From assembly GCA_000004985.1 (NCBI GenBank), contig GG738884.1: DNA of 64,000 nt. The stretch is one strand, 5' to 3'. Below the pieces are notes generated by a model. It had not been told where the DNA came from, searched no databases, and worked only from the letters and a program-made list of their open reading frames with translations. The translations under genes and the position numbers were made by a program. Shown here one piece after another: positions 1 through 53,477 of the stretch; within the stretch, counting starts at the first letter, position 1, and each line of letters starts with the position of its first letter. The stretch comes from Naegleria gruberi (taxonomy: Eukaryota).

Positions 1-277
1 TACTTTTCGATTCTATAAATTTCCGCATATTTTGTGATTGTCTTTTAAATTTTCTAGTTAATAATTGTTGTTGTTCTCGGAGGTGAATTTCTTCTTGTTT
101 TGATGATGAATAAATTCCATCACTTACATTAAAAATCACTCTCCCTTCATCTTGTTGCATTTTTTAATAATTTTACAAAGATAAATTCCCAACACAGATG
201 TTCCATCCGGATTATTTTGATTCACAGGTATCTACTACTCCAACACAATCGTAATCCTTGGGTTTTGATTTATAGTA

Positions 278-865
278 ATGATATCTAGAAATCAATCAAA
301 AAAAATGCTTCGATTGACCAGATCAGCGATCAAGAGTAATCTCTCGTCATCATTTAAATATAACTCATCACGAGTCTATTTATTTCATCAATCATGCACA
401 AGATTTAATGATGCATCATCTTCAGAAGAAACCACAGAAAAAGAAAAGGAAATAGTTCAAGTACTAGTGCCATTGGTAGGAAGTGGAATTTCGAATATTC
501 AATTCAACAAGTGGCATAAACAAGTTGGAGATCAAGTAGGTTATGGTGATTTAATTGCTGAATTGCAGCATAATGAGACAAAATTGGCAATTGACATTTT
601 TTCACAAAGAAGAGGAATATTAAAAGAACAATTAATTAGTGAAGGATCTTTTGTGAATTGTGGAGATGCAATTTCAAATGTTGAAGTTGAGAAAATGAAT
701 GAAGAAGAGTTGAATATTGACATGACTACTGTCAGGCAGGACCCAAATCAAAAACCTGAAAAACCGTCTTTACTTTCTGCTTTGCTGGATTTAGGTGTTC
801 TAATACTTGCATTCTTTTCTATCTATCCAATGTTTAGTCAAAAAGAAGAAGAAAAAACAAACTAG
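278..865 (+). CDS. Small protein with a single lipoyl/biotinyl-attachment-like (hybrid motif) domain, an N-terminal presequence-like region and a C-terminal hydrophobic segment
   Basis: 195-aa ORF. The core VPLVGSGISNIQFNKWHKQVGDQVGYGDLIAELQHNETKLAIDI...GILKEQLISEGSFVNCGDAISNVEV resembles the lipoyl-domain pattern (G-D-V..GD.L.EIETDKA...EG.V..G). The N-terminus is basic and S/T-rich like a mitochondrial presequence. The C-terminus has a hydrophobic stretch, LGVLILAFFSIYPMF. Confidence 0.4.
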   Translation: MISRNQSKKMLRLTRSAIKSNLSSSFKYNSSRVYLFHQSCTRFNDASSSEETTEKEKEIVQVLVPLVGSGISNIQFNKWHKQVGDQVGYGDLIAELQHNETKLAIDIFSQRRGILKEQLISEGSFVNCGDAISNVEVEKMNEEELNIDMTTVRQDPNQKPEKPSLLSALLDLGVLILAFFSIYPMFSQKEEEKTN

Positions 866-951
866 ATCAATTTGTATTTTAAGGGAATTTTCAATATTAA
901 ATAAGATTAGAAACTGTTTAACTTTCATGGAACTAAACCTTATATTAATTC

Positions 952-3018
952 TTATCTAACTCTTGGAGGTTTGTAATTCGAAAAGGCAACTTTAACAGCA
1001 ACAACCTCTCCTTGATGAATCTTGTACAGACATGGATAAGCTCCATCACCATTTCCACACATTGAAAATAATCCATACGGGAATAGTATTAATTGCTTAT
1101 CAGATGATTCGTTCAAAATTCCATTCACTACCTCATACCAATCCATACTTTCTTGTTTCGTATTCTTGAAAAGAGATGCATCTTCGAATTTATCACCATC
1201 AATAATTCCAACTCCATGATCAATTCCAATAATATTTGAGACATGCCATCCATGACGAATTTCCTGATTGAAAAGGTCAAAATCAGAGTCAAAGATATTT
1301 CCAGGAGTTTCCCAATCCTTCTCAATTTCTGGATGATCTTTTGCATATTCATTGTTGTAGAGTAAAATTTGTTTTGGTAAACGTGGATTCAATTGAGTTG
1401 CTGTCCAGACACCATTTTTAACATTTTCAATTAAGGCACTTTCGTCCTCTCTATCAGTTGTGAAATCAATAACTTTTAACTTTCCAGAATCTACTTGAAT
1501 TTCATTACTTTCCATCATACATAACCAATCTTCATTCAAGTCAACCTTTGGCTCTTCTTCAGATTCTATATTGGATTTTTTTGGTTCTAAAATACCAAAG
1601 GCATGATCTGTCTTTCGTCCAATAAAAGATGTTCCTTTTGATCTTTCTCTCCACATTCCATATTTCAAGCAACCATCTTCAATATCATATACGAACCCAT
1701 AGTCATCTGAACCTGTATAGAGTGGTGCACCCAAGTAATTAGAAAACTCTTTCACACTTGTCATTTCTATATAATTTTCACTGCATAATTTTGGATATTT
1801 GGTCTTGCAATTGATTCCTCGAGTGATGTGAAATTTTGAGAGTTTTTCTGATTGATCAATAGCATGAATGTATTCTCCTCTAAATGAAGGAAAGTGTTTT
1901 TTCAACTCATCCTTACTTTGAATAGTAATGCTTGGATGTTCCTTCCCCAATTGATAGGTTTTAAATGAGAATTCTCGATTAATTTCCTCTCTAGTCCAGT
2001 AAGGAATTTGTTTGACTGCATTATCATCAATATGAATAGCATTACAATCTAAACCTTTGAAAGCCAATATAGAATTTGATTTTTCACTCCATCCAATAAT
2101 TTCTTCTCTTGGATAGAAAGAATTCTTCTCCAAAATGCATTGAATTTTGCCACTTTCTATTGGAGAGTTTTTAGGAGCTGGTTTATAACTCAGAATTTGA
2201 GAATTGCAGAATAGGATAATTCCATATTTTTCTGAAAGTCCAATATAATTAATGTCACTTTGCCATGGTAAATGATCAATGACGCTTAATTGATTATTCG
2301 AATCGAATATAATTTCTACCAATCTTCTATCACCACAAACCATTGCCTGTATTGTCTTATCTTGCTTATATGGAATGAATTTATGACTTGTAAAACCATT
2401 GGAAATTACACTGCAAAACATTGAAGTATCATTAATAATAAACTTTTCAAATTCTCTCTTTTCCCTTTCGAATAAATAAAAGAATTGTTGATAATACAAG
2501 CCACACACTGCATACTTTCTGCAGCTTTGAACATTTTCACATGGAATAAAACACGTAAGTTTCTCACGAAGATCCTTATCAAGTACAATCTTTTTAGTTT
2601 CGAATTTCCTTGATGTAAAATCAACTAATAGAAAATCAGATCTGGTTGGCGTACCAAGAAGAGCATGTCCATCAAATATTCCAACACAATAAAAAACCTG
2701 TTCATTGCCAATGTCAATATTTTCAATTTTTTGATCTTTGAAAAGGAATAACTTGTTATCGGAAACTATTATTCCCTGGACACATGTGGAATCTAATAAA
2801 TGGCTTTCTGTGTCCATGTGGAATGATGCATAACCTTGTCCTTCTGTTATTGTCCATTCTTGTAAAATATTTTGATTCTCATCAATGTGAAGTAATTTAT
2901 TGCCACCATCTTGTTGCTGAATGACGTAATTTGATGAGTGACAGAAGAGAAAAGTTCCAGGTGGTGTGAATTGCATTTTTTTTTGGTTGTTTCTTTTCAA
3001 ATATTGGCGCCGCCACAA
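952..3018 (-). CDS. Hypothetical 688-aa protein, W- and D-rich, with no recognisable domain
   Basis: Single uninterrupted 2067-nt ORF with coding-like composition. Its start lies only 47 bp downstream of the stop of the ABC gene on the same strand. I could not assign a domain from sequence alone. Confidence 0.5.
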   Translation of the reverse strand: MWRRQYLKRNNQKKMQFTPPGTFLFCHSSNYVIQQQDGGNKLLHIDENQNILQEWTITEGQGYASFHMDTESHLLDSTCVQGIIVSDNKLFLFKDQKIENIDIGNEQVFYCVGIFDGHALLGTPTRSDFLLVDFTSRKFETKKIVLDKDLREKLTCFIPCENVQSCRKYAVCGLYYQQFFYLFEREKREFEKFIINDTSMFCSVISNGFTSHKFIPYKQDKTIQAMVCGDRRLVEIIFDSNNQLSVIDHLPWQSDINYIGLSEKYGIILFCNSQILSYKPAPKNSPIESGKIQCILEKNSFYPREEIIGWSEKSNSILAFKGLDCNAIHIDDNAVKQIPYWTREEINREFSFKTYQLGKEHPSITIQSKDELKKHFPSFRGEYIHAIDQSEKLSKFHITRGINCKTKYPKLCSENYIEMTSVKEFSNYLGAPLYTGSDDYGFVYDIEDGCLKYGMWRERSKGTSFIGRKTDHAFGILEPKKSNIESEEEPKVDLNEDWLCMMESNEIQVDSGKLKVIDFTTDREDESALIENVKNGVWTATQLNPRLPKQILLYNNEYAKDHPEIEKDWETPGNIFDSDFDLFNQEIRHGWHVSNIIGIDHGVGIIDGDKFEDASLFKNTKQESMDWYEVVNGILNESSDKQLILFPYGLFSMCGNGDGAYPCLYKIHQGEVVAVKVAFSNYKPPRVR

Positions 3019-3065
3019 TATTGTAATGATCTAGTCTAATAGAGATATATTTTTATTGTAATGAT

Positions 3066-6000
3066 TTAGGCATAATCAAACTCTGTTTCAGAGGATTTGC
3101 TTTTCATTCTATTCTTGAGCCATTTAACTGCATGACGTAATCCAGTTGAGAAATAATTCTGAGTTGCATTAATGGCCAAATTGACATAACTTGATGGTTT
3201 CACACAGACAAGTGCAATAAATGCTGAAATTCTGAAAGCTAAACCAAAGATAACCATCATGTAAATGGTCATTCCCAATTCATTCTCTTCATATCCCATA
3301 TTCTTCAAACTTGTTGAAATGTCATAGATATCACTATATTTGGTAATTTCAATGAGATAGGCATTTTCATGACTGTAGGTAAGGAAAGATATCCATGGCA
3401 TGATATTGATAGGGAATGACATGGCTTTCAATGAAGGAAGAGGTGTTGTTGATCCACTGAATGTGTTAAATATGAAAACTAAAACAACAGCAGTCAATTG
3501 AGCTATTCCTGGTTGAACTATAATCGAAACTAGATATCCTAAACCATATGATGTCCAATAAACTAGTAATAGAACATAATAATATTCATAAACTGGTGCT
3601 CTTGGTGAAACTACAGTGTAATAAATTGTTAAAAAGACAATTGGTGCAATCAAGTTTACAATGAAAAGTGATAAATCTTTAGCCCAGAAATAACAGAAGG
3701 TACTTAATCCTGTTTGACTTTCTCTATTGAAAATTAAACTTTCCTTACCAAATGCTCTGAGTGCTGACATGGCAGCCATCAAAGCCATGCCAAGTGTCAT
3801 GAGTGAAGATGTGGCAGCAACTGGATCATCAACAGGTTGTTTACAAATTTCTTGTAAACCACTTGGACATAATTCATAAATTCCCTTTGGTGGAGGACCA
3901 ACATATACCTTATTATGGTAAACAAGACCCAAGAATGCTGAACAAAGGAAAATTAAGAAAAAGTCCAAAATTAAACTTGGCAAAGTTCTCAAAATTTGAG
4001 TGAAACTTCTCTTGAAACACATCCAGAATTGAGCAAAATAGGAAAATCTTGGATTTTTGAATTGAACTTGTTCTGGTTGATCATTAATTGAAGATTCGCT
4101 ACTAGTTTCGGTTGTTGTTTCTTCTTCGTATAAGTGTTTCTTCATTTCCCAAACTTCTGGTAATGAGATAGGTTCAAACTCTATATCTTTCTGACATGGA
4201 ACTAAACCTGCAGAAACATCAATTACAAAATCAGCCAAATTAGTTCCATTAGGTTTTGGAAATCCTAATTCCTTTTCAAAGTATTCTTCAACTCGTGTGA
4301 CAGGTCCAAGATAAATAGTTTTACCACCCTTTCCTAGCAATAGTAAATTATCAAACATGTTAAATATTTCATATCTAGGTTGATGGATAACAGTAATAAC
4401 TGTCATTCCTGATTTGGCAATTTCTTGTAAACATTGACAGACTTCCATAGATGAACTACTATCCAAACCAGAAGTAGGTTCATCAAGGAAGACTGCAATT
4501 GGACAAGCAACCAATTCAATGCCAACATTAACTCTCTTTCTTTGACCTCCTGAAATTCCACGTTTTTCTTGATCTCCAATTATGGCATGTCTAACATCTT
4601 GTAAATTCAAAACATGAATCACATCATTGACAATGGCGTCAATTTCCTTAGATGGTGTACTTGCATCAAGTCTGGTCTTTGCTGAAAAATATAAAGTTTC
4701 TTCTACTGTGCAAGAACTAATCATAATGTCATCTTGTGGGACGAAACCTAGCTTACTATTGTAATTCGAAAGGTTGTCTCTCTTTCCATTGACGAATACT
4801 TGACCTAATTGAGTTCCATAATAGGCACGATTTGAGAGTGTGGTAATGAAAGTACTTTTACCAGCTCCTGATAAACCCATGACAGCTGTCAATTTGCCAT
4901 GTTTAATTTCACCAGTGACACTATCCAAAACTCTCTTTCCAGAACCTTTCAATGTAAGACCCAAATCCTTGAAACCAATATCAACAGTAAATTGATTAGT
5001 TCTAAAACCAGACGGTTTGTCACTTGCCAACAAATTTGAATTTTCATTAACATCTTTCAAGAACAATTTAGTTCTCTTATGTTTCTTAACATTCTTCAAA
5101 CTATATCTAACATAAAATCTGAAAGCAGCTTCATAAGAAACATAAATAATTGCAATAATAATCATGATAATGACAACCATGGCCAATCCACCAAATTCCA
5201 TTCTATCACTTTTTGTTCCTTTTGGACAATTAGAAAAGAATGAACAACCAGTTGGTTTGATACTTCCCTCACGACAATAATAACCAGCTGGGCATAGGAT
5301 TTTCAAACTGGCATTTGGACAATAGTAAGATTCTGGACACAGCTTGTAGGTGAAGGATCCTTCTGGACAATATTGAGATTCTGAACAGTTTCTAATAGTA
5401 TGAGTGTTTTCACAGTAGAAACCTGCTGGACAGAGTGACTTCTTGTAGGATCCAGGTGGACAATAATCCATAGAATCATTCTTGAATTCACAGAGAGATG
5501 GTTCAATAACTGTATCATTTAAACAATAGGTATTTTCTGGACAATCCAGATTATCTGTGGTTGTTCCATTTTCCATAATAACTACTTGTCTGGCCATGTT
5601 ACAATAATCACCTTCCTTACATGATTCAATTCCAGTGAAATATGGAGTAGTATCACCAACCTTCAATTTCTTAATATAGTAACCAGGAGGAACTGGTAAA
5701 GGACGTTCATATTTTGTTGTACAGATGGTGCCATCTGGACAATCCTCACTTCTCCATAAACTACTGCCGAAACATGTTTGTTTTCCAAATTCTCCATCAC
5801 ACATCAATGGATATGGCATTTGAATGTATGGACAAATGTAACCACTTGGACATGGAATTCTAATTCCAGACAAACAGTAGCTCTCCACAAGACATGGTAT
5901 TCTAGTAAGCGATCTATAAATGAAATCTCCTGGATTTGTCAAAGTATACGGAACTACCAATGTGCTTCTGAAGAGATTACACAAATTACCTCTCAAACAT

Positions 6001-8270
6001 GAGCTTGATAACATGGCAAATTGATTTTCATTGAAATCTCGTGGAGGGGCTTGATTACATGCACCTGAGAATGATTTCAAAAAGACATTATCAGGATCTG
6101 TCTTTAAAGTATCACAGACAAGTTTGAATCTGTCATTGGCTTCAATTTCCCATCTCTTTCTAGTAATGGAAAGGAAGAGGAATTGATTGTTTTCTGAAAC
6201 GAATAAATCAATTACCTTTCCAAGTGCTAAGAAATCATTAACATTATTGGTCATGGCCACGTATCCTTGTTCAATTAAGGAAGGATCATCAGGAGTGGAT
6301 GAGGTTAAATTGAGTGAAATTGCAAGAACTTGCACATTTTTCTTCATTGAAATGTAAATATTTTCTTGCCAGTAACCAAAGAAGAAGGTAAATAAATCTT
6401 CCTGTTGAGTGAATGCTCCTGTGAAAATGTCAATTTCGCATCTGGCTTTTGAGGCATCTTCCATACATTGATCAGTGTCAATTTGTCCTCCTTTCAGATA
6501 GTCAAATTGGCAAATGACAGATGGATTCAAGTGTCTAGTTTCGTTATAAGCAGAAATACCATTCATTGTTTGATTAATGTCCATGAAACTTGATTTGATA
6601 ATTTCAACTTCATCATTCATTTCAGTAATGGTTTGAATATTGTCCAAACATTTACCATTATTCGAATGTTGATTGGCTCCACAATTGAAAGTTTGTGGTC
6701 TATTAGCTGTGTTTCCTTCATTGAAGTTAAAATTATAATTGACAAATTCTGGAATGTGATGTAAAACAAAGGAATACCTTTCGTTTGTTTCACCTTGTTT
6801 CTTCAAGCCCAGACCAATATATAAATTTTGAGAAGGTGGAAATTCTACATTCTCACATGTAGTTTGCAAAGAGAGTTTGATTGGCTTTCTCAATTTATCA
6901 AGAATTGGATAGGCAACAGTAATGGAAGATCCCTCAGGAGCTTGATAAAAAGTATTTAAATTATCTGAATTGACCAAATCAATCTTTCTATAAGAATCTT
7001 GGAACTCTACAATTCTAACTTGCTTTGAAGTGTATATCATAATAAGAGATCTTGAATTAGCCAAATGATTTCTTTCAAAAAATGTTTCTTGAATTCTCAT
7101 TGGTGCTGTCTTTGAAAAATTACCAAAATGAATAAAAGTTTCAATTCTGAAATCTTCATCACTTTCTACATCCCATTTCAATGGAACTGTCATGTAATTC
7201 TGATGCATTACAGTACCTCTAATGAAAATGAGTTGATATCTTGGTTTTTGACCGTCATCAATAATTTTGAGAACACCAACAGAGTAAACATTTTGAGTTT
7301 GAGTATCTCTGAACATTTTCAAATCCAGAACTTGTTTGACATTATCATCCAAACTGTAGAACCAATATCTGTAAAATTCTACCTGATAAAAATTAAACAC
7401 TCCATTAATGTTTAACTTTCCATATTTAGTTACTTGAACTAGGGCAATTTGATCTTGGTCATCTCCAATACCAGTCACTGAACCATATACTTCTCCTTTC
7501 AATAGTTCTCTATAACCAGGATACTTGTAATAAATAGTAAAACCACCATTATAGAAATCTTTAGTATTAACCATGACAACTCTTCCATTTTGATAAAATT
7601 GAAAGAGACGGCCAAAGGATTTACGTCCATTACTTGAATCAACAGCTCTAATAGCAACTACACCTTTACAATCATCTTCTAAAGGTGAATCAATTCCACC
7701 ACATTTGTACTGAAATTCTCCTTTGTTAACAACTTGAACATCTGAGAATATTTCAGGAGTTCCAGCAAATGGATTTGTTTTAGAGCACCACAAGTCAGTA
7801 AAAACAATTGGCATATCAGCAGTACCACATCCATCTTTTGGTCCTGTGTAGAGAGTTGGAGTATCATCATCGCCAATAACTCTTAATTTGATGTTAGAGG
7901 TTGCTCTCTGTTTTTGAAAACTTCTCTTATGTGAACTCTGTGAGTCTATAGCATCTCTCAAATGTTGATACAGAACAGAATCTGGTCTTTTGTAATCAGA
8001 TTGTTGTTCATTCACATGGCTTGCCTTAATGGATGATTCTTGTCTTATGAGAGTATGGTCTTGGAACAAGTATGGATTCATGGAAGGAGCAACAGCAGCA
8101 TGCACACTGCTGATAGTTACTCCTGTTTCTGATAACATGTTATTGCCATTATTGAACTGGTGAAATGTGAAGAAAAGTATCAAGAGTGTGGAAATGATGA
8201 ACAATCTCACACCATGAGAAATTCCGAAAGGATTTGTTGTGGTAGTATGTTGTCGAAGAAGAGGTACCAT
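3066..8270 (-). CDS. ABCG-type (White-like) half transporter fused to a roughly 1000-aa N-terminal extracellular Cys-rich domain. Layout: signal peptide, ectodomain, TM, NBD, 6-TM domain.
   Basis: 1734-aa single-exon ORF. Walker A GLSGAGKST, ABC signature ISGGQRKRVNVGIEL, Walker B VFLDEPTSGLD and H-loop VIHQP are present. The NBD precedes the C-terminal multi-helix TMD, which is the ABCG order. Upstream are a signal peptide (FIISTLLILFFTF), a roughly 950-aa domain ending in tandem CxxGxYC modules (CPPGSYKKSLCPAGFYCENT...CPEGSFTYKLCPESYYCPNASLKILCPAGYYC), and a TM helix (LAMVVIIMIIIAIIYV). Confidence 0.85.
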   Translation of the reverse strand: MVPLLRQHTTTTNPFGISHGVRLFIISTLLILFFTFHQFNNGNNMLSETGVTISSVHAAVAPSMNPYLFQDHTLIRQESSIKASHVNEQQSDYKRPDSVLYQHLRDAIDSQSSHKRSFQKQRATSNIKLRVIGDDDTPTLYTGPKDGCGTADMPIVFTDLWCSKTNPFAGTPEIFSDVQVVNKGEFQYKCGGIDSPLEDDCKGVVAIRAVDSSNGRKSFGRLFQFYQNGRVVMVNTKDFYNGGFTIYYKYPGYRELLKGEVYGSVTGIGDDQDQIALVQVTKYGKLNINGVFNFYQVEFYRYWFYSLDDNVKQVLDLKMFRDTQTQNVYSVGVLKIIDDGQKPRYQLIFIRGTVMHQNYMTVPLKWDVESDEDFRIETFIHFGNFSKTAPMRIQETFFERNHLANSRSLIMIYTSKQVRIVEFQDSYRKIDLVNSDNLNTFYQAPEGSSITVAYPILDKLRKPIKLSLQTTCENVEFPPSQNLYIGLGLKKQGETNERYSFVLHHIPEFVNYNFNFNEGNTANRPQTFNCGANQHSNNGKCLDNIQTITEMNDEVEIIKSSFMDINQTMNGISAYNETRHLNPSVICQFDYLKGGQIDTDQCMEDASKARCEIDIFTGAFTQQEDLFTFFFGYWQENIYISMKKNVQVLAISLNLTSSTPDDPSLIEQGYVAMTNNVNDFLALGKVIDLFVSENNQFLFLSITRKRWEIEANDRFKLVCDTLKTDPDNVFLKSFSGACNQAPPRDFNENQFAMLSSSCLRGNLCNLFRSTLVVPYTLTNPGDFIYRSLTRIPCLVESYCLSGIRIPCPSGYICPYIQMPYPLMCDGEFGKQTCFGSSLWRSEDCPDGTICTTKYERPLPVPPGYYIKKLKVGDTTPYFTGIESCKEGDYCNMARQVVIMENGTTTDNLDCPENTYCLNDTVIEPSLCEFKNDSMDYCPPGSYKKSLCPAGFYCENTHTIRNCSESQYCPEGSFTYKLCPESYYCPNASLKILCPAGYYCREGSIKPTGCSFFSNCPKGTKSDRMEFGGLAMVVIIMIIIAIIYVSYEAAFRFYVRYSLKNVKKHKRTKLFLKDVNENSNLLASDKPSGFRTNQFTVDIGFKDLGLTLKGSGKRVLDSVTGEIKHGKLTAVMGLSGAGKSTFITTLSNRAYYGTQLGQVFVNGKRDNLSNYNSKLGFVPQDDIMISSCTVEETLYFSAKTRLDASTPSKEIDAIVNDVIHVLNLQDVRHAIIGDQEKRGISGGQRKRVNVGIELVACPIAVFLDEPTSGLDSSSSMEVCQCLQEIAKSGMTVITVIHQPRYEIFNMFDNLLLLGKGGKTIYLGPVTRVEEYFEKELGFPKPNGTNLADFVIDVSAGLVPCQKDIEFEPISLPEVWEMKKHLYEEETTTETSSESSINDQPEQVQFKNPRFSYFAQFWMCFKRSFTQILRTLPSLILDFFLIFLCSAFLGLVYHNKVYVGPPPKGIYELCPSGLQEICKQPVDDPVAATSSLMTLGMALMAAMSALRAFGKESLIFNRESQTGLSTFCYFWAKDLSLFIVNLIAPIVFLTIYYTVVSPRAPVYEYYYVLLLVYWTSYGLGYLVSIIVQPGIAQLTAVVLVFIFNTFSGSTTPLPSLKAMSFPINIMPWISFLTYSHENAYLIEITKYSDIYDISTSLKNMGYEENELGMTIYMMVIFGLAFRISAFIALVCVKPSSYVNLAINATQNYFSTGLRHAVKWLKNRMKSKSSETEFDYA

Positions 8271-8701
8271 GGTTACTGTATGTGATACCTCTTGGATCTT
8301 TTTTTTCCTGAATGAGGAGGCAAGTTATGATTTGGTTTGCTGGAACATGACTCGTTCGGAGTTAAATTCTCCTTTGCCGGAGTGCAGGTGTGAAAATAGT
8401 AACACTTCTAATACATGAATTCAAAAGCTCCCCTTACTCTACAAACATAATATTGTTTTCCAGGAAACCAAATAGGAAAAACATCTTCTAGTTGAGTTAC
8501 GATTTTGTAAAATTGAGCCCTTTATGATTGCTTTGAAAATTTTCTAATCACACAATCCACATTACGAACCAACTCAACACTTAATGCTTCATTTCTTCTC
8601 AAATTATAAGAGAGTGATTGCTGAAAATTGCTTTGAAATTTACAGAACGCGAATTTTCAATTTGAATTTCAAAGAAATTTGATTTTTTTAATTAAAAGAT
8701 C

Positions 8702-9634
8702 TTAATTGGCAAATCCTGAAGTACCAGTGAAACCTCCTCTACCACCACTACTGCTACCACCTCCAACAAAGGCAGTTCTTTCTCCAACATATCCATATCC
8801 AGCTCTACGAATACCAAGAACATCCATAACACAATTTCTGAAAGCAGTAATGATACCACAAATAATTGAACAACAAATGCAAATAGCAACTACAATGACA
8901 ATGACAACAATAGCAAAGAGTGGGAGTCCTTCATTACACTTTGAGAATTGATCACCAACAGTATTGAAAGTAACAGTTGGTTGATAAGCAATATTGGAAC
9001 TGATAGCACCAGTTGAGAAGGTGACAGTTTTTCCATTGACAACAGCACTTCCTCCTGAAGTAGTTACATTGTTAGCAAGATTGACATCAGAAGAGAAGAT
9101 GAACTTTGAAGTAAGCATGCCAATTGGTGAGCTTTCCTTATAGTAATAGGAGACATAATTTTGCTTCTATGATGTGTTACAAAATTTCATGTGTGAAAAT
9201 CAATCAATACTTACATTAGAATTAACTCTAATTGGTCCATTAGCACTATATGTATAACGAATGGTAAGTGTAGTGGTGAGTGTGCTTGGAGTGGAAGGGA
9301 AGAAATTAGCAACAATAAAGTTAGAATCTTGTTGAGCTGAGACATATTTAGATGACAATGAATATCCTCCAGTCAATACATCAACTCTAACAGAACTCAT
9401 GTCAATAGAAGAAGCAATTGAATAAGGAACTGCTCTAGCAACAGTTGAGTAGGATCCAGTGAATTGATAGCTGTAAGTTTCCACAACTGAAACAGCACAT
9501 GAACTGGCACTGAGTGTAACGTCTGATTGAATACTAGCAATTGAATATGTCTTTTGAGCATTACAAACTCCGAGAATGATCATCAAGATCATCATCATTA
9601 CTACAGAACTTGTTGAACTGATAATTTGCTTCAT
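8702..9634 (-). CDS. Secreted or type I membrane protein with a Gly-rich C-terminal tail. Two exons: join(8702..9136,9215..9634), intron 9137..9214.
   Basis: Signal peptide MKQIISSTSSVVMMMILMIILGVCNA. Exon 1 ends AAT|GTAAGT and the acceptor is TATAAG|GAA, which joins the two ORF-track ORFs in frame (...VNSN|ESSPIGMLTSKF...). Exon 2 has a TM segment (LFAIVVIVIVVAICICCSIICGII) and a tail GGGSSSGGRGGFTGTSGFAN. Total 284 aa. Confidence 0.6.
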
Positions 9635-11962: not shown

Positions 11963-13960
11963 ATGTTCAGATACGGCATTGCTTTTTTATTGATTCTGTG
12001 TTGCAGCATTAATGTTTACAGTTTGTCCTCAAAAGTTGTCAGCTGCACCGATGCCTCATGCACAACACAACTTGCAGTTCAAATATCTTTAGCCTTTGGA
12101 AATCAAAAATCGATGTTAGTAGAATTATCAGACACTGTGAATGAAAAGGGAGAAAAAGTTAATCTAAGGCCTATTAAGATTGTTATTCAGAAGTCAGCTC
12201 CGAAGGCTGTGTATCCTCTATTGTATGTGAAAACGTTTAACGGAAAACCAACAGAAAGCATAATTTACAAAGATGACATTCTTGTTCCAACTTGTGATGA
12301 TTCTTCAAAATCAGCAGCTCCAACTTGTGGTTGGGTAAAGGATAGCCAAGGAAACAAAATACCTGATAGCCAAGGCTTTTGTTGCTCCTGTTCAGTAGGA
12401 CAAATGTTCGGGGACAGTTCAGCGTCTAATAGAGGCGCTCTTAATTGTGGATTTATGCAAATGAAGTCTTCTGCTCACTGTTTACGTCTGGGAGAAGTTT
12501 ACTGGGATGCTTATGAAATAGAAGGTTATGTTATGTCATTTGAAATATCAGTATTCATAGGTGAAACTGGGTTTGATGATATTGGAAAAGTCACTGTTTC
12601 ACCATCATCTAAGTTAGCCCAACTGCCAAAAGGAGGAAGAGTAGAGCTTGAAGGGGACTTCTCTGCTTACAAATCAGTCCCACTTTATGAAAGCAAGTAT
12701 CTATTCATTCCAAGCTCTCCCAAAACAAGTCCAATAGTGGTCAACGGCCAAGCCAACTGGATGTTTATTGACAAATCAATGGTTACCTTAAGTGGTTCAG
12801 AATGCGATAAAATTGGTGTGTCATATGCTCAGTTCAGAAACCAACCAAATGCATGCTCAAGACCAGCACTTACTTGTCTAGCAAATCAAATAGAAGATCT
12901 AAGACTTGCAGACGTTGAATTAATGAAATCAGGCCTAAAATCTGGAAAATATATTGTTTCGAATTTTGGATCATTTGCTGTTAACAAAACCAATACAGGA
13001 AATGTATTAGAAAAGTATTTGGATGAAGATACTAATTCTCAGATCAATTTGTATATTAATGGTGAAAATGTAAAGTTTCTAATAACCAAAAGTGCAGCTG
13101 AAATTTCAGAAGCATATGTTAAAACATTTACTTCCCTTTCCAAAGAAGGTGAAATGTTGGTTAGTGTGAAAAACAAAGGCGCAAATGGTTGTTCCTACGT
13201 TGTAACAGTAACAGAATGCAGTGACAACATTCTTACAATTGTTCAACAAACAGTATTTGTAGATGCATCTAATAAGAAAGAATTAACCTTTCAAGTTAGA
13301 TCAGAGCAGAAACTAGCCACAACCAATCAGTGCAAAGTAACTCTGTTGTTTTCTGATGGTGAAAAAATTCAAGATATCACAGTTACCTTTGACTCAAAGG
13401 ATTACGCTTATGAAAATGCAATGGAAAGCAGTGGAGAACAAACAGGAAAAGTGGAAACAGAAGGAGATCACTCACTAGGTCAATGTAAATGTAACTCCCC
13501 ATTCGATGTGGTCTGTATTGTTCTCAATTCAAGCTCATGTACCTCCTACATTATTGGTTGGGTTGCCTCAATAGTTGGTATTATTGCAACTCCTGTAATC
13601 TTTGTCTTTTTGTGGAGATGTGGTCTATTTGGCCTAATGTTCAAGACGTGTAAATGTTGTGCTTGTTGCTGTTCCTTTCTTCCAACAAGTATTATGAATT
13701 GTCTTATTGGTCCTTATAAGAAGAAATCCAAAAAATCCAAGAAATCCAAAAAGAAGAAACGTCACCACTCTTCCTCTGATAGTGAAGATGAAAAGAAATC
13801 CAAAAAGAAAAAGAAGAAGAGCAAGAAGAATAAGAAGAGAAGGAAGAAGAGACGTCAACAACGTAGAGATGATTTTGAAATGGACTATTACAATGACAGA
13901 TACTCAAAGAGGAGAAGTCACAAGGATATTGAACATGATCCAATTGCTAGGTATAAATAG
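11963..13960 (+). CDS. HAP2: HAP2/GCS1-type gamete fusogen candidate: signal peptide, Cys-rich ectodomain, TM, poly-Cys juxtamembrane segment, polybasic tail
   Basis: 665 aa. Signal peptide MFRYGIAFLLILCCSINVYS. Ectodomain carries the motif PTCGWVKDSQGNKIPDSQGFCCSCSVGQMFGD...NCGF, consistent with the HAP2-GCS1 signature region. One TM helix (IIGWVASIVGIIATPVIFVFLW) is followed by a palmitoylation-like Cys cluster (CKCCACCC) and a K/R/H-rich tail (KKKSKKSKKSKKKKRHH...KKRRKKRRQQRR), as in algal and plant HAP2. Confidence 0.65.
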   Translation: MFRYGIAFLLILCCSINVYSLSSKVVSCTDASCTTQLAVQISLAFGNQKSMLVELSDTVNEKGEKVNLRPIKIVIQKSAPKAVYPLLYVKTFNGKPTESIIYKDDILVPTCDDSSKSAAPTCGWVKDSQGNKIPDSQGFCCSCSVGQMFGDSSASNRGALNCGFMQMKSSAHCLRLGEVYWDAYEIEGYVMSFEISVFIGETGFDDIGKVTVSPSSKLAQLPKGGRVELEGDFSAYKSVPLYESKYLFIPSSPKTSPIVVNGQANWMFIDKSMVTLSGSECDKIGVSYAQFRNQPNACSRPALTCLANQIEDLRLADVELMKSGLKSGKYIVSNFGSFAVNKTNTGNVLEKYLDEDTNSQINLYINGENVKFLITKSAAEISEAYVKTFTSLSKEGEMLVSVKNKGANGCSYVVTVTECSDNILTIVQQTVFVDASNKKELTFQVRSEQKLATTNQCKVTLLFSDGEKIQDITVTFDSKDYAYENAMESSGEQTGKVETEGDHSLGQCKCNSPFDVVCIVLNSSSCTSYIIGWVASIVGIIATPVIFVFLWRCGLFGLMFKTCKCCACCCSFLPTSIMNCLIGPYKKKSKKSKKSKKKKRHHSSSDSEDEKKSKKKKKKSKKNKKRRKKRRQQRRDDFEMDYYNDRYSKRRSHKDIEHDPIARYK

Positions 13961-22977: not shown

Positions 22978-23050
22978 CGCCCACCGTGGGGGTCGAACCC
23001 ACGACCACAAGGTTAAGAGCCTTGCGCTCTACCGACTGAGCTAGACGGGC
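22978..23050 (-). tRNA. tRNA-Lys (anticodon CUU), copy A
   Basis: 73-nt cloverleaf. Acceptor GCCCGTC/GGTGGGC (two G-U pairs), D arm GCTC-AGTCGGTA-GAGC, anticodon arm CAAGG-CTCTTAA-CCTTG, T arm GTGGG-TTCGACC-CCCAC, discriminator G. Identical in sequence to copy B. Confidence 0.9.
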
Positions 23051-27881: not shown

Positions 27882-27954
27882 GCCCGTCTAGCTCAGTCGG
27901 TAGAGCGCAAGGCTCTTAACCTTGTGGTCGTGGGTTCGACCCCCACGGTGGGCG
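27882..27954 (+). tRNA. tRNA-Lys (anticodon CUU), copy B
   Basis: Same 73-nt sequence as copy A, in inverted orientation 4.8 kb away. Confidence 0.9.
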
Positions 27955-36264: not shown

Positions 36265-39200
36265 ATGAAAGGTGGCAATCTCTCAGTATCTAAATTGGAT
36301 AATGACAGATACACTCAGCCACCAACAACACGATCACAACACACCATCTATTCAAGATCATCAACTCTTTTCATCATCATTCTAATAATTATTTTATTAA
36401 TTTCTTCCTTCTCGAGTCTATTCGTTCTCTCTCAATCGAACTATTGTAAAGATAAAACCTATCGATTCATCAGTGTTGTTCCTGATGAAGGTGATGCAAC
36501 CAATTCATTCAGTGGTGATAAATTAAAAACCTCCATCTCTATTGGCATTGATTATTTACGGGCTCAGGGAATTTTACCAACAGGAGTTTCCATTGAAAAT
36601 GTTTTTGTTGTTACAAAGAATGATTTATCGGGTGCTATTGAAAAGATGAGGAATTTAATTATGGTCAATGGAACAAAGGATGAAAGATATGTGGGAATTA
36701 TTGGAGCGTAAGTTTTTAAAGATGATTAATATTGATGATTATTAATGATGAATTTGTAATCGGAATTAAATGATTATATTCATTGATAATGATAACATCA
36801 TGTGGAGAATAGTTACTACAGCTATGAATCTTTGACGATTGCTTATGAAATTGCCTACGAATATCAAATTCCAATGATTTCGTATGGTTCTTCTACGTCT
36901 GTACTTTCGTATAACAGATGGTTTTATAGAGTGTAAGTTTTAGGAAGAATCAGAGATTATAATTGATTAATAGTATTCCATCTTCGTTAGCCATGACATC
37001 TGCAATGGTGGAATTTTTATATTCTTTGGAGTGGTCAACTATTTCAGTTTTGGCATCAAATGAGGTTTATGGAGTTGATTGTGCAAGGAATATTCAAGCA
37101 ACAGCTAAAGAAATTGGTATGACCATTGATAATGTATATTATTTCAAGGTTGGTGATCACCAAGAATTAGCAGATCGAGTTACAAAAATCAAAGAATCTG
37201 GAACCAAGGTGATTGTGACAATTATGACTTCAGATACTGATGCCACTTTTCTATTGGGAAAAATTAAGGAAATGCAACTCAACACTGAGGGATATATTTG
37301 GATGTTTGATGAAACTTTTGCCTATCAGCCTGGTATTTCTGCAAAGAATGTTTCACTCACATCTGATTCACAGGGAATGTTCTTTGTGGAATTGAATTCT
37401 GGGTTGTGGTCTAGTGATTTGTACTTTGTTGGAAAGTTTATGCAACAATATAATTATTCGAGTGTGGAAGAGACCTATTCACAAATTCAAGCTTTTGATG
37501 TAAGTATTATTAATGAAAATATAGAGTGATGTTAACGAATTACAGAGATTTGCATTCGACTCTGCTTTGAGTTTTGGTTATACTATTCGTGATATGTGTC
37601 AAAGTGGATTGGATCCAACTCATGGTGTTGCGATGGTTTCCTCTATTGATCAAGTATCATTTATTGGAGCTAGTGGAAAAGTTTCGTTTGACTCTTATGG
37701 AGATCGTTTGGGAGTTTATTATTCTGTAAATAATGTGGATGGAAACGAGGCCACCATTGTTGCTAAATGGAGCCAACGTGAATCTATAGTTTGGGACGAA
37801 TTTTTCTATGTAAATAGAACTCTCAGAGTGCCTTGGGGTAAAATCACAAATGTTCAAATCTTTTTGAATTCACCCCTTACAGGAAACAGATGGTTTTCAA
37901 TTCCATCAGTCAATCAGGTACCACCAGAACGTCACAGTCATACCATGTCTCTAGGAATTACAACAAATAGACTATATTTATTTGGAGGTAATTCTCAATC
38001 TAAACTTAATTTTGACATGTATTCTGATTTGTGGAAGTATGATTTTATCAGTGGACAATGGTCTAAAATGGAGGCTCTCGATGGATACTCTCCAAAGGGT
38101 AGAGAGGGCCACATAATGTGGACTGTTCAAGCTGGTGTCTATAGCACGGATGAAAGAATCATTATATTTGGAGGAAAGTCAGGTTCTTACACAGATGACA
38201 TGCTCGAATATTCTACTCTCAGATCTCAGTGGAGAACAATTTCTCCAAATTCATACAAGCCATTTGCGAGATACTCAGCCAAGATTGCTCAGTACAAAAA
38301 CAAAGTCTACATGTTTGGAGGTTTGACCTATAATGGTGTAAGAGATGATATGTGGATATGGAATAATGAGAATTATCAATGGAGTAAGGTTAACCAGACA
38401 TCCTCGGCTGTTTGGCCTTATGGTAGATATTCTCACTGTATGTCTGTTTATACATACAATGGAAATCCGTATATTTTACTTTTTGGAGGAAAAGGTCCAG
38501 CTGGTGAACCTTTATCTGACATGTGGCGTTTTGACATGACTCAAGAAACTTGGGCTCAAATAAGTCAAACAGGAGATGTTCAAGGAGCTGTGTTTGATTC
38601 TACATGTGTAGCCACTGATAAGTATTTATATGTATTACATGGAAAGACTGTAAAAGGAAGTCAACAAATTATGTTCAAGAAGGTAATGAGAGCTGACTTG
38701 CCGTTCACACAAACATCAGTCAAATGGAAAGTGACAGAGTCCAATCTCAGCGATCCTAGGTCAAATGTTGCTTCTGTTTTCTTTTCCAATTATATTATTT
38801 GGTTTGGTGGTCTAGGTCTAGATTATGACTTTAATGATTTTTATTCATTGAATGTCATTAATCAAAAGATTGTTAAAGTGAATAAGAACTTTTTTGCTCC
38901 TAGCCCTGTAGTAGCTCACACCATGTCTACCTTAGGTGCATCCCTTTACTTATTTGGAGGATATATTGGTGATGACATTCCTTCCAATCTACTCTACAAA
39001 TATTCTATTGCATCCGAAACGTGGTCTATTGTCGATACTCAAACTAAACCATCACAAAGATCATATCACACCCAAGTGACACTTGGTGATCGTATTTGGG
39101 TGTTCGGTGGTATTGAGTCTTCATCAAAAGTTTATTCTGATATTTGGACCTTTTCTGCCAGTGCTGATTCATGGACTCTTGTTGAGCCTAGAACATCTGC

Positions 39201-41848
39201 AGTACCTATAGCAAGATATAAGCATGCAATGACAAGAAATGAAACCCATTTGTTTGTAATTGGTGGTAGAACTCAAACAACTCAATTGACAGATATTTGG
39301 GCTTTTGATACAGAAACGAAAACTTGGTCGAAATTCAAGCAAATTATTACCTACGCCTATACAATAGATTGCTCTGCAAAATGGTTCTCTGCAGAAGAAA
39401 CAGGATCATACCCTGCTATTTTACTATTTGGTTGTCATGATTTTTCAGGTACGCCAACAGCTAATTATTACAAGGTTGAGATAACTGACGTTAACAATGA
39501 CCAGTTCAGGCTATCATACAGTACATTGTTTAGAGAAATAGAACCTAGGTCAGGGTTGGTAGCTGTCAAGTTATCAGGATTCAAATCAATGATATTTGGA
39601 GGTAGAATGGATCAAGAATTGTTTAATACCTTATTGCTTGTTGAGGGATCTACTGGAAACACAAGTGTGATTCTTCCTCCATTGACTGAGCATGAACTAC
39701 CTTCTGCTAGAGCCTACCTTTCCTATTCATTTATTGGAAATTCAATTTACATATTTGGTGGTGTTGGTGCACCAGAAGGAACTGAATTCATTTTACCATC
39801 TCTTAGAAATGGTGACATGTGGAAATATAATATTGGCAATGTTTGTAAAGGCAAAGATTCTACCAATTGTTACAAATGTGGACCAGGAACTTATGAAACC
39901 TATGGAATGTGCGAATTTTGTCAGCCAGGGTCATATAATGAGCAGTATGGAGCCATTGATTCATGTACAGCATGTCCAAAAGGATTTTACAGTGATGTAT
40001 ATGGAGCAAATCATGCTCAGTTTTGCCTTCCTTGTGAGTATGGTACCTATTCTGATAAGCCAGGAAGTACCTATTGCTTACCTTGTCCAGATGGAGCTGT
40101 TTGTCAACTTGGTGCTATCCAACCAGTCTATAACTATACAAAGATTGCTTACAGAAAATCAAATCAACCAGATGCCTACTTTTCCAAAGAAGTGGAGAAC
40201 AGTAATGCTATCAAAATTGAAGCTGGTATTATTGCATCAATTGCTGGCTCTCTTATTCTGATAGTGTTTTTCTGTTGGAAAGTTTTTAATATTCCAAAAG
40301 AAAACTGGATCAAGAGAATGGACTTTTTCTTTACTGAGAGACACAATAGATTAATGGGTACAATGATCAAAAGAAGATCAATTGTTGGAGCTTGTTACAG
40401 TTTTATTGTTTTGGTAGCGTTCTTGGCCTACATTATTGCACTTGTTGTCCCTTACTAGTAAGTACAATTATTTCGAATATTTTATTAGAAAATTTTATTT
40501 TAGCAATTACGGAAATTATGTGGAAAACAGAAGCTTGGTTCCAAACCTTGCTTTGGATGACGAATTCAAATCAGATGCAGTGATTAGCCTAAAAATTCTA
40601 GGTTTTAACGGTCGGTGCACTGAGGGAAATCAAACAATTATTGACAAGCCAATGAAATGTCAAGAGAAGCTGTCCATATTCCTGGAATCAATTGATTATG
40701 ACAATTCCACGAAAGGTAGTAATTTCGAATATGATTGTCAAATTGACGATGATGGAGCTGGTTCGAGAAGTTGTATTGTTTCTATGAGATTTACTAATTG
40801 TGCATTTGCCAAAGATAGAAAAACAGCAACTATTGGTATTAAGGTTGGTGGTAGTAATGCATTTGCCAATGGATATGAGTATCAAGTAGATTTTGCTTCT
40901 GCCTACATTGATGTTTATATGCCTGAAAAATTACCACAGAGATCAGTAATTAATGGCACAATTTACTCTGATGATAACACCTTCTTTAGAGGAACCAAAA
41001 CTCCAACCCAGGTCAATTTCCAATTAATTCAAAACAGATACACAATTCCATCTAAAAATATTAAGCAAACAGGCTATGTCATTGATTTCCAAGATCAGTC
41101 ACAGGGAGACGTTGTTGAATCTCTATCATTTAGTCACGAAAATGGCCTTTATTTTGTGTTGAGTTTTGAAAAGCTATCCACAACACTTGAATTAGTTCTC
41201 TCTGAGAAGAAGGTTATCTTTGTCTTTTTAACTGACATGCTTGCTTCACTTTCAGGTATTTTCTCATTGACAGCATTGACCATGTCAATAACTGAATTTT
41301 TCATTTTCCACTATAAGAGAATTAGAGCTAATTTGATTGCCTATAGAAAGAAACATGCCAGTATGGATACCAACTATTTATTGGACGAAGTAGTACTTCA
41401 GGGAACTGAATATCAAGCAATGAAGAAAAATCTCAATAGACAAGACGAAGCATTCTACGATGACATTACAATAGCCAAAATTTATCACAAGAAGGGAATG
41501 AGAAGAAATGTTGTGTACATTCCTTCCAATGCTCTAGAGGATGAAGAACTCATCGATGCTAACCAACATGAACTAGTCACTGAAAAACCACCCTCAACAG
41601 AAACCTACATGGAAATGCACGAGAATGCAGACGAATATGCACCACCAGTTTTAGCCAACAACCGATCTGTCTCAATTTTCTCCAAACGAAAGAAGAAGAA
41701 TTCAAAGTCTGAACTTGCAGAACCATTCATTACCGAAGAGGAAATGGATTTGGATGATCTTGTCAATGAGCAAGACAATAATTTCTCACTCAATGACATC
41801 AAAGGACCACTCACATCTTCAACCACAGCAGTACCTTACTACAAATAA
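36265..41848 (+). CDS. Large multi-pass receptor-like protein: signal anchor, ANF-receptor/PBP1 (Venus-flytrap) domain, about 11 Kelch blades, ephrin-receptor-like Cys-rich modules, at least 3 TM helices and a cytoplasmic tail. Five exons: join(36265..36707,36822..36932,36974..37499,37546..40457,40504..41848).
   Basis: Splicing: GC|GTAAGT (114-nt intron); exon 2 ...IPMISYGSSTSVLSYNRWFYRV ends GT|GTAAGT (41-nt intron); exon 3 ends GAT|GTAAGT (46 nt); exon 4 ends TA|GTAAGT (46 nt). All phases are consistent, and ORF-track ORFs 36265/36963/37567/40436 fall in one frame. The PBP1 signature ISYGSTS..LS...F.R..PSD-like is present (ISYGSSTSVLSYNRWFYRVIPSSLAMTSAMVEFLYSLEWSTISVL). The repeated LFGG/IFGG motifs count 11 (LYLFGG, IIIFGGK, VYMFGG, ILLFGGKG, IWFGGLG, LYLFGGY, IWVFGGI, LFVIGGR, ILLFGCHD, MIFGGRMD, IYIFGGVG). 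Cys modules: CYKCGPGTYETYGMCEFCQPGSYNEQYGAIDSCTACPKGFYSDVYG...CLPCEYGTYSDKPGSTYCLPCPDGAVC. TM segments: IASIAGSLILIVFFCW, IVGACYSFIVLVAFLAYIIALVV, IFSLTALTMSITEFFIF. Total 1778 aa. Confidence 0.7.
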
Positions 41849-45529: not shown

Positions 45530-45602
45530 TGCTGACGGACGGGATCGAACCGGCGACCAATGGCTTATTAGACCAACGCTCTACCGACTGAGCTACGCCA
45601 GC
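45530..45602 (-). tRNA. tRNA-Ile (anticodon AAU)
   Basis: 73 nt. Acceptor GCTGGCG/CGTCAGC (one G-U), D arm GCTC-AGTCGGTA-GAGC, anticodon arm TTGGT-CTAATAA-GCCAT with anticodon AAT at 34-36, T arm GCCGG-TTCGATC-CCGTC, discriminator A. Confidence 0.85.
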
Positions 45603-53400: not shown

Positions 53401-53477
53401 ACCAAATCAAATTGGAAGGTTATAACCTTGAACTTGCCAAGATTGACGAAACCATTGAACGTTTGAAGAAAATGTAA
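50454..53477 (+). CDS. VARS: Valyl-tRNA synthetase (class I aaRS)
   Basis: 1007-aa intronless ORF with HIGH motif PPNVTGSLHIGHAL, KMSKS motif KMSKSLGNV, and editing and anticodon-binding regions. The C-terminal coiled coil is typical of ValRS. Confidence 0.92.
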   Translation: MSKQNTKKKTELEKVTFTNSTPLGEKKDVQSIEMPAQYHPEFVEMAWYEYWHKKGYFTADANDTTKETFTIALPPPNVTGSLHIGHALTVAVQDAICRYHRMNGKNVLYIPGVDHAGIATQVVVEKQLAKQDPPVSRHEIGREKFVEKVFEWKEEYGQKIMNQLKRIGASLDWTRECFTMDETLSVAVKEAFIKMYEQGIIYRKNRLVNWSCVLKSAISNIEVDSDEVEGNKLFIPGHPENKKYEFGKMWSFAYKFEDQEFANDEIIISTTRPETMLGDVAVAVHPDDPRYKKFHGKTLIHPFLERKLVVITDKELVDMNFGTGAVKITPAHDPNDFECGLRHNLEMICVFTDDGKINENGGEFKGMMRFDARYAVIEELKKKGLYRDEKVHKLALKKCSRSKDVIEPMLKPQWYVKMDDLARQACEAVQNGTLKIVPEREKTTWFHFLGAENVQDWCISRQLWWGHRIPAYLVKIAGKEHLSADDEKWWIVAHDEQEARAKAMEKFKDLVTSESDIILQQDEDVLDTWFSSGLFPFSPLGWPNTESADFKRFFPTQMLETGLDILFFWVSKMVMMSLSLTGELPFTEVLLHAMVRDKENRKMSKSLGNVIDPIDVIEGITLQEMNDKLKQGNLSSREIEKAALGQKKQFPEGIPECGTDALRFTLLNYTAQGRDIALDILRVFGYRTFCNKMWQTTKFALMNWTDFKSEGIENYPTDLSNLTFNDKWILSRLNKTIKACNASFEKGNYDFMTYTQSCYDFWLKDLCDQYLEMIKNDIKSEDLNRRRTTQLVLYTCIEQCLRLLHPTMPFITEELWQRLPGHSAFPSNRESIMICPYPAPVAAWENDNVETEMKFVMEVVHAIRSLKGAYKLTPKQTPEVYIITSSQNDLLKSVKAYIEMLALSGNLYFDVEVKDIPAGCGVEVVNQYCEIHMMLKGLIDIDQEVKKQEKNKEKLVKVRDSLIERTQTEKYKTNTPEEVKNNDQIKLEGYNLELAKIDETIERLKKM

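Follow-up and report, generated by a model that had tools for sequence, protein, structure and literature searches.

A half-size ABCG transporter of Naegleria gruberi with a large putative N-terminal ectodomain shared by distant homologues

A 64,000-nucleotide stretch of Naegleria gruberi DNA (contig GG738884.1 of assembly GCA_000004985.1; hereafter the window) encodes, at positions 3066-8270 on the minus strand, an ATP-binding cassette (ABC) half-transporter of the ABCG subfamily in which a large cysteine-rich region and an additional transmembrane (TM) helix precede the nucleotide-binding domain (NBD). The gene is a complete coding sequence (CDS) of 1734 codons plus a stop codon that forms a single open reading frame (ORF) from ATG to stop, and all coordinates given below for its parts are on the same strand. 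From N- to C-terminus the protein consists of a hydrophobic segment, a putative ectodomain with a predicted β-propeller head, a neck and a cysteine-rich stalk, the extra helix (TM0), and an NBD followed by an ABCG-type transmembrane domain (TMD). Sequence comparisons indicate that orthologues as well as distant homologues share this architecture, and the protein apparently represents a widespread, automatically annotated variant of the ABCG subfamily that has so far not been described.

Results

The ABCG Core

The NBD (residues 1100-1360; 4191-4973) was identified by Pfam ABC_tran, by motif alignment and by sequence matches in the PDB. An earlier note made from the DNA sequence had quoted a Walker A motif (GLSGAGKST, residues 1132-1140), a signature motif (ISGGQRKRV, 1239-1247) and a Walker B motif (VFLDEPTSGLD, 1260-1270), all of which are present, and the domain furthermore contains a Q-loop (VPQDD, 1177-1181), an H-loop (VIHQP, 1294-1298) and the catalytic glutamate of the Walker B motif. 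Judged by these motifs, the NBD is canonical and predicted to be ATPase-competent. The TMD (residues 1405-1693; 3192-4058) follows the NBD within the same polypeptide, which is the reverse topology of the ABCG subfamily, and was assigned from the Pfam families ABC2_membrane_7 and ABC2_membrane and from structural comparison with Foldseek. The Pfam matches to ABC_tran (residues 1115-1267, 67.8 bits), ABC2_membrane_7 (PF19055; 164.6 bits, best stretch at residues 1493-1690) and ABC2_membrane (residues 1414-1635, 60.5 bits) are all above the curated cut-offs. The protein ends in a basic, presumably cytosolic helix (residues 1695-1734; 3069-3188) that is helical in the structure model at residues 1695-1726.

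The best sequence matches of the core in the PDB are all ABCG/PDR proteins (Cdr1, AtABCG16, AtABCG25 and ABCG2; E-values from 2e-69 to 1e-36), and Foldseek superposes the modelled core on ABCG2, ABCG1, ABCG5/G8 and AtABCG25 (E-values down to 4e-35, target-normalised TM-scores of 0.84-0.86) and also on AtABCG16. Domain order, motifs, Pfam domains and fold are the same as in other half-size ABCG proteins (White/WBC: ABCG2, ABCG1, ABCG5/G8, ABCG25, ABCG16). Overall, the protein has every tested feature of the subfamily except one: half-size ABCG proteins with known structures have a cytosolic N-terminus that starts with the NBD and contain six TM helices, whereas approximately 1025 additional residues and TM0 precede the NBD in the Naegleria protein. 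A further difference from these structurally known proteins is found in extracellular loop 1, which is enlarged and contains a cysteine pair (C1468/C1476) whose motif, CPxxLxxxC, is conserved in the family alignment consensuses. Extracellular loop 3 (residues 1604-1661) contains no cysteines, whereas loop 3 of ABCG2 carries cysteines. The enlarged loop 1 with its cysteine pair and the cysteine-free loop 3 are consistent with an ectodomain that touches the TMD on its extracellular side.

Membrane Topology of the N-Terminal Half

A hydropathy scan of the protein identified three kinds of hydrophobic segments: an N-terminal segment (residues 21-37), TM0 (residues 1026-1048) and the TMD block (residues 1424-1693). 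The N-terminal segment (8160-8210) forms a hydropathy peak with its h-region at residues 23-37, has an equivalent in the Naegleria fowleri orthologue and in many other homologues, and is predicted to act as a signal peptide or signal anchor. No convincing -3/-1 cleavage site was found by eye in the sequence after residue 37 (HQFNNGNN); a more typical site (...SSSILEA) is seen after this segment in the N. fowleri orthologue. The segment of the N. gruberi protein may be an uncleaved anchor, in which case the protein would have eight instead of seven membrane spans with its sidedness unchanged. It is followed by a low-complexity region (residues 40-139; 7854-8153) that is predicted to be disordered, with a predicted local distance difference test (pLDDT) score below 50, and that could not be aligned with N. 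fowleri.

The earlier note had proposed an extra TM helix ahead of the NBD, and this helix is well supported. TM0 (5127-5195) has a hydropathy peak of 2.95, the highest value within the protein, and is modelled as part of one continuous helix (residues 1026-1072) that runs into the cytosol. A hydrophobic peak at the equivalent position was identified in 27 out of 28 homologues examined. The flank on the C-terminal side of TM0, RFYVRYSLKNVKKHKRTKLFLK, carries ten basic residues (Lys/Arg) and only two acidic ones, an Asp and a Glu, as is expected for the cytosolic side of a membrane helix. The region upstream of TM0 contains 9 of the 12 N-glycosylation sequons and 38 cysteines, of which 23 are conserved in at least 90% of the homologues, all of them within the neck and stalk (residues 694-1015). 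The N-terminal segment, the cysteine- and sequon-rich region, TM0, its basic flank and the structure models, that is, every indirect indicator, agree with the topology that had been proposed, in which the NBD would be cytosolic and the propeller and stalk would be located outside the cell or in a lumen.

Organization of the Ectodomain

The ectodomain together with TM0 (residues 40-1060) was modelled with AlphaFold from 21 aligned sequences (mean pLDDT 69, predicted template modelling score (pTM) 0.68), and the region from the neck to the C-terminus (residues 620-1734) was modelled from 35 sequences (pLDDT 82.4, pTM 0.67). In the first model residues 40-137 are disordered and are followed by a β-rich core with pLDDT values of 83-96. 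The second model contains, in this order, the neck, a ladder of hairpins, the TM0 helix, a disordered linker, the NBD, the helical TMD and the C-terminal helix.

The head (residues 140-634; 6369-7853) is predicted to consist of a cysteine-capped N-terminal lobe, a seven-bladed β-propeller and a helical linker. Foldseek searches with the ectodomain model returned weak matches to a Chlamydomonas mastigoneme protein and to the Sema-PSI-Ig region of semaphorin 3A (E = 5e-5, target-normalised TM-score 0.36). The resemblance lies in the layout, with a propeller followed by small disulfide-rich modules; the same order is found in semaphorin/plexin (Sema-PSI) and attractin (Kelch-PSI-EGF) ectodomains. 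Unlike these receptors, the Naegleria ectodomain has no match to the Pfam models for WD40, Kelch, Sema or PSI or to PF07699. A hidden Markov model (HMM) of the head that was built from close homologues detects members that were held out from its construction, namely P0033 of Willaertia (225 bits), P0086 of N. lovaniensis (46 bits) and P0044 of Rigifila (44 bits), and did not detect the head in the Anaeramoeba or Mastigella members. Because the head HMM recognizes members outside its building set, the head is probably ancestral to the family.

The neck (residues 635-757; 6000-6368) is a domain of β-strands and helices that is defined by the pattern VSxNxQHxF ... RxxWE ... C, which is conserved in the family alignments. 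It has no relative in Pfam, and a search of the PDB with the neck profile found nothing. In the model the first strands of the neck, around VSxNxQHxF, may form the closing blade of the propeller. The stalk (residues 758-1020; 5211-5999) is composed of eleven C-x5-C motifs between residues 758 and 1015, many of which have the form CPxGxYC, and is modelled as a ladder of short β-hairpins. All 27 aligned homologues share sixteen of the stalk cysteines, and a further seven are present in at least 90% of them. Within residues 694-1015 of the 27-sequence alignment, 17 cysteines and several glycines and prolines are invariant. No relative of the ectodomain sequence was found in the PDB; a match to RutD (E = 0.27) was discarded as noise.

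The earlier note had described the stalk modules as ephrin-receptor-like. The CPxGxYC motif is indeed present and looks like that of GCC2/GCC3-type repeats, but the Pfam and PDB searches do not support the label. PF07699 is not found in the ectodomain even at E ≤ 10, nor in any of 27 family members at E ≤ 1e-3, and the stalk profile retrieves no ephrin receptor, TNFR, furin-like or EGF-like chain from the PDB. A profile comparison with hhalign between the stalk and the genuine PF07699 tail of another protein encoded in the window (37567-40458) gave a probability of 34.8%. The stalk is therefore treated here as a separate type of repeat that may be a distant relative. The protein encoded at 37567-40458 (plus strand, 963 amino acids (aa)) contains Kelch/attractin-type β-propeller repeats and a C-terminal Ephrin_rec_like match (26.1 bits), and is a second case within the window in which a propeller is paired with a cysteine-rich region.

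Integrity of the Gene

The ectodomain and the ABC core are encoded by one gene, as had been supposed. The ORF listing contains no stop codon or frameshift across the 5202 nt of the frame, in-frame stop codons are located directly 5' of the start ATG, and the GC content of the window is approximately 34%; a 5.2-kb open frame in DNA of this composition is therefore not due to chance. An ORF of 95 aa on the opposite strand within the CDS (7128-7415, plus strand) was treated as a chance ORF. No ABCG paralogue was found within the same 64-kb window.

A metagenome contig (ENA ERZ929261, 9204 nt) is 98.4% identical to positions 1-8578 of the window and is derived from a closely related Naegleria strain. 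Substitutions were counted against this one contig and the counts are small. Over the whole CDS, 40 synonymous and 15 non-synonymous differences correspond to a ratio of non-synonymous to synonymous substitution rates (dN/dS) of 0.097. Residues 140-1020 account for 24 synonymous and 3 non-synonymous differences, which are distributed between the propeller region (14 and 3) and the neck and stalk (10 and 0; 9 and 0 for the stalk alone), and the N-terminal residues 1-139 display a dN/dS of approximately 0.7 based on only 11 changes. The ectodomain is under purifying selection, and the substitution pattern marks it as coding sequence that is constrained and read in one frame with the ABC core. 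The ABCG gene in ERZ929261 carries a 9-nt in-frame deletion (codons 73-75) and a 1-nt deletion at codon 1414 that splits the gene call in two.

The split gene in ERZ929261, together with the lack of a recorded gene with exactly this product (see Discussion), might be taken to indicate that a gene for a secreted cysteine-rich protein and an ordinary ABCG gene were misread as a single ORF, or that the locus is a pseudogene. Such an artefact is very improbable. The break in ERZ929261 is TMD-proximal and lies inside the ABC part, not at the junction between the ectodomain and the ABC core, and the frame in the window itself is intact. Furthermore, the N. fowleri annotation gives the fusion as a single protein, the fusion also occurs in assembled transcripts of Rigifila and Mastigella (see below), and the low overall dN/dS and the neck and stalk free of non-synonymous changes are not those of a decaying gene. 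The reading as separate genes or a pseudogene was rejected based on the colinearity with N. fowleri, the transcript-derived homologues and the dN/dS values.

Distribution of the Family

An exhaustive HMMER scan of 1.8 billion cluster representatives with residues 40-1020 identified 843 representatives at E ≤ 1e-3, of which 256 remain at a threshold of 1e-10 and 77 at 1e-30. The ectodomain, for which the earlier note had seen no recognizable homology, does have relatives. The best 150 of the 843 matches were re-scanned with the separate parts of the protein. Among these, 48 contain the stalk fused to an ABC NBD (29 of them with the TMD as well), 27 contain the head and/or the neck, mostly together with the stalk, without an ABC part, and 75 contain stalk-type repeats only, with up to 34 copies in a protein of 6346 aa. 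The 27 matches without an ABC part are mostly shorter than 1100 aa and many originate from contigs of a few kb. Within the same 150 matches the neck is confined to short fragments and to proteins that also contain the head or stalk.

The giant proteins that consist of stalk-type repeats without an ABC domain include P0018 (6346 aa), P0037, P0043, P0074 and P0121. Pfam is silent on their repeat, apart from a single PF07699 match in one giant protein that is below threshold (22.3 bits against a gathering threshold of 23.1 bits).

Among 27 long members of the family, 24 match PF19055 and 20 match ABC_tran, and none matches any ectodomain Pfam family. A word-seeded homology search with the full protein and with the 27-sequence alignment returned only a metagenome protein with 99% identity and generic ABC matches. 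The N. fowleri orthologue (FDP41_004289, XP_044561707.1; 1678 aa), named “ABC transporter domain-containing protein”, is 48% identical to the N. gruberi protein and colinear with it from residue 140, in an alignment shown to residue 1572. Within the Heterolobosea, members were identified in N. fowleri, N. lovaniensis, Willaertia magna and Acrasis kona. A member from Anaeramoeba flamelloides (Metamonada) was deposited under the name “abc transporter g family member 28”, and the members from Rigifila ramosa (CRuMs) and Mastigella eilhardi (Amoebozoa) are assembled transcripts in which the cysteine-rich region, the helix, Walker A, signature, Walker B and the TMD are found in one ORF. Most full-length members have a signal-like N-terminus and a helix approximately 90-170 residues before Walker A. 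The fusion is thus no lone case, being conserved across Heterolobosea, Metamonada, Amoebozoa and CRuMs, and its host, which the earlier note had placed among the amoebozoa, is a heterolobosean (Discoba), as follows from the N. gruberi valyl-tRNA synthetase encoded in the window (see Neighboring Genes).

Members with a Degenerate NBD

Eight members of the family (P0058, P0062, P0072, P0082, P0086 from N. lovaniensis, P0115 from Willaertia, P0117 and P0147) lack Walker A, Q-loop, signature, Walker B and H-loop and have retained the neck, stalk, TM0 and TMD. Willaertia magna contains both a form with an intact NBD (P0033) and a form with a dead NBD (P0115). The co-occurrence of live and dead forms is what would be expected if the two subunits pair in the way that ABCG5 pairs with ABCG8, and by this analogy the dead-NBD subclade suggests obligate heterodimers of live and dead subunits.

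Comparison with Known Transporters

A search of the ABC transporter literature found no description of an ABCG protein with an ectodomain. In surveys of eukaryotic ABC architecture the ABCG proteins consist of an NBD and a TMD, in this order, with the N-terminus in the cytoplasm, and a layout with an ectodomain does not appear (PMC4649718, PMC13257379); a paper that treats ABC structures (PMC9408558) likewise names no such ABCG. Of the proteins described so far, ABCG24 and ABCG28 of plants may be the closest relatives. These long half-size ABCG proteins (Arabidopsis ABCG24, ABCG28 and their cereal homologues) are, like the Naegleria protein, several hundred residues longer than usual; the maize homologues have lengths of 1040-1112 aa whereas typical members have roughly 600-790 aa (PMC9409143). 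At the tip of the pollen tube, ABCG28 is required for reactive oxygen species and for secretory vesicles that contain polyamines (PMC7419745). Should the plant proteins be relatives, they would be long enough for the signal, neck, stalk, TM0 and core, but too short for the propeller head as well. None of the searches returned a plant sequence.

Large extracellular domains are also present in ABCA transporters (PMC13257379). ABCA1 and ABCA4 belong to the same type II exporter fold class and have extracellular domains of approximately 600 residues that are inserted within the TMD, whereas the Naegleria ectodomain is appended at the N-terminus through a helix of its own. The ABCA domains, which are thought to receive lipid, are located between TM1 and TM2 and between TM7 and TM8 of a full transporter. 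A sequence search of the PDB found no similarity between ABCA proteins and the Naegleria ectodomain. Other systems that combine an ABC motor with a large non-cytosolic or accessory domain, and act outside the membrane, are the Dictyostelium TagA-D proteins (protease-ABCB fusions) and the bacterial type VII ABC systems MacB and LolCDE. These belong to different ABC subfamilies and have different accessory folds, and no homology between them and the Naegleria ectodomain was detected.

Neighboring Genes

The ORF downstream of the ABCG gene (952-3018, minus strand; 688 aa) starts 48 nt from the ABCG stop codon and has a weak C-terminal match to DUF4241 (E = 9e-4, below the cut-off). On the other side of the gene, two adjacent ORFs (8702-9118 and 9200-9634, both on the minus strand) probably represent one gene with a short intron; the upstream ORF of the pair begins with a signal-like sequence and contains a DUF2207 N-terminal domain (24.8 bits), and the downstream ORF has a TM helix and a Gly-rich tail. 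A 665-aa ORF (11963-13960, plus strand) is covered along its entire length by a Pfam match to the HAP2/GCS1 gamete fusion factor (E = 2e-105), and NOG1 is also encoded by a neighboring ORF. These ORFs indicate a eukaryote whose genes contain few introns. The window furthermore contains three tRNA genes (22978-23050, minus strand; 27882-27954, plus strand; 45530-45602, minus strand), which comprise two genes for tRNA-Lys(CTT), located on opposite strands approximately 4.8 kb apart, and one gene for tRNA-Ile(AAT). The valyl-tRNA synthetase encoded at 50454-53477 is 100% identical to a recorded N. gruberi protein, and its next best matches are those of N. fowleri (84% identity) and W. magna (75%).

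Discussion

Taken as a whole, the observations are explained best, and with somewhat better than even confidence, by a dimeric ABCG exporter whose propeller and stalk bind a partner outside the cytosol. The signal or anchor segment would send the N-terminal region across the membrane of the endoplasmic reticulum, and TM0 would return the chain to the cytosol, which would leave the NBD in the cytosol and the propeller and stalk outside the cell or in the lumen. By analogy with other half-size ABCG proteins, the functional unit would be a dimer with either a second copy or a dead-NBD paralogue as the partner, and ATP would be used to export a substrate from the cytosol or from the cytosolic leaflet. 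Each of two rigid stalks would position a propeller over the point where the translocation path opens to the outside, and each propeller would bind an outside partner, such as an acceptor, a component of the surface or matrix, or a ligand or regulator. This partner would receive the exported substrate, or would position or regulate the pump. Among these elements, dimerisation, the substrate, localisation and any coupling of the ectodomain to the pump are the parts that we infer.

Some observations weigh against parts of this explanation or its background. The exact 1734-aa product, as well as products that start at Met45 or Met64, matched no recorded gene in the assembly collection. The reference gene model at the ABCG locus seems to differ or to be missing, since the valyl-tRNA synthetase of the same window is recorded at 100% identity. 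The stretch that joins TM0 to the NBD is modelled as disordered, with pLDDT below 50 at about residues 1071-1087, which argues against a tight mechanical coupling or a signal along that route and is silent on the packing of TM0 or a contact through the loops. Finally, the possible link to the plant ABCG24/ABCG28 proteins is based on the automatic name of the Anaeramoeba protein and on protein lengths.

Two alternative functions of the ectodomain were considered. The protein could be a ligand-gated pump or a receptor, in which a ligand bound to the propeller switches the ATPase and transport, or in which the ABC module serves as the signaling output of the receptor. The combination of a propeller, a cysteine-rich stalk and a single helix resembles the ectodomains of receptors, Foldseek gives a weak match to semaphorin 3A, and the dead-NBD paralogues keep the ectodomain, so that the ectodomain would have a role that is independent of its own ATPase. 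A gated pump or receptor of this kind is nevertheless unlikely: no cytosolic signaling domain was identified, all Pfam matches being to ABC domains, the NBD and TMD are fully canonical and constrained as in a working transporter, and the predicted disorder of the linker that connects TM0 to the NBD does not favor a signal along the chain.

Alternatively, the protein might operate by mechanotransmission in the manner of MacB, LolCDE or LptB2FG, where ATP-driven motion of the ectodomain would act on a substrate outside the membrane, for instance by pulling out or passing on lipid or surface material, and no solute would be carried through. ABCG1 and ABCG5/G8 handle lipids and sterols at the outer leaflet, and such handling by ABCG relatives, along with a large, rigid and disulfide-laddered ectodomain that is conserved alongside the enlarged loop 1 with its cysteine pair, would fit a mechanical device. 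However, the ectodomain is attached to a separate helix on the N-terminal side of the NBD and is not placed between TMD helices as in MacB, FtsX and ABCA, and it resembles those periplasmic domains neither in structure nor in sequence, which makes mechanotransmission quite improbable. The dimeric exporter with a partner-binding ectodomain is preferred here. A broader and more speculative proposal, which we regard as doubtful, is that the family represents an ancient and possibly pan-eukaryotic ABCG machine in which the ectodomain is coupled to the motor, either ligand-gated or mechanotransmitting, and which is assembled as a heterodimer of live-NBD and dead-NBD subunits.

The protein is noteworthy to specialists in ABC transporters and represents a good structural target, although it opens no long-standing question. 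It offers a natural system in which to ask how an extracellular domain couples to a type II ABC exporter, and it belongs to a lineage of ectodomain-bearing ABCG proteins that is present in at least four distant eukaryotic groups and includes some members without any ATPase motif. The unexplained N-terminal extensions of the plant ABCG24 and ABCG28 proteins may find an explanation here. In Naegleria the proteins constitute a large family that is predicted to be exposed on the surface, and the N. fowleri orthologue could matter for the surface biology of this organism or as an antigen.

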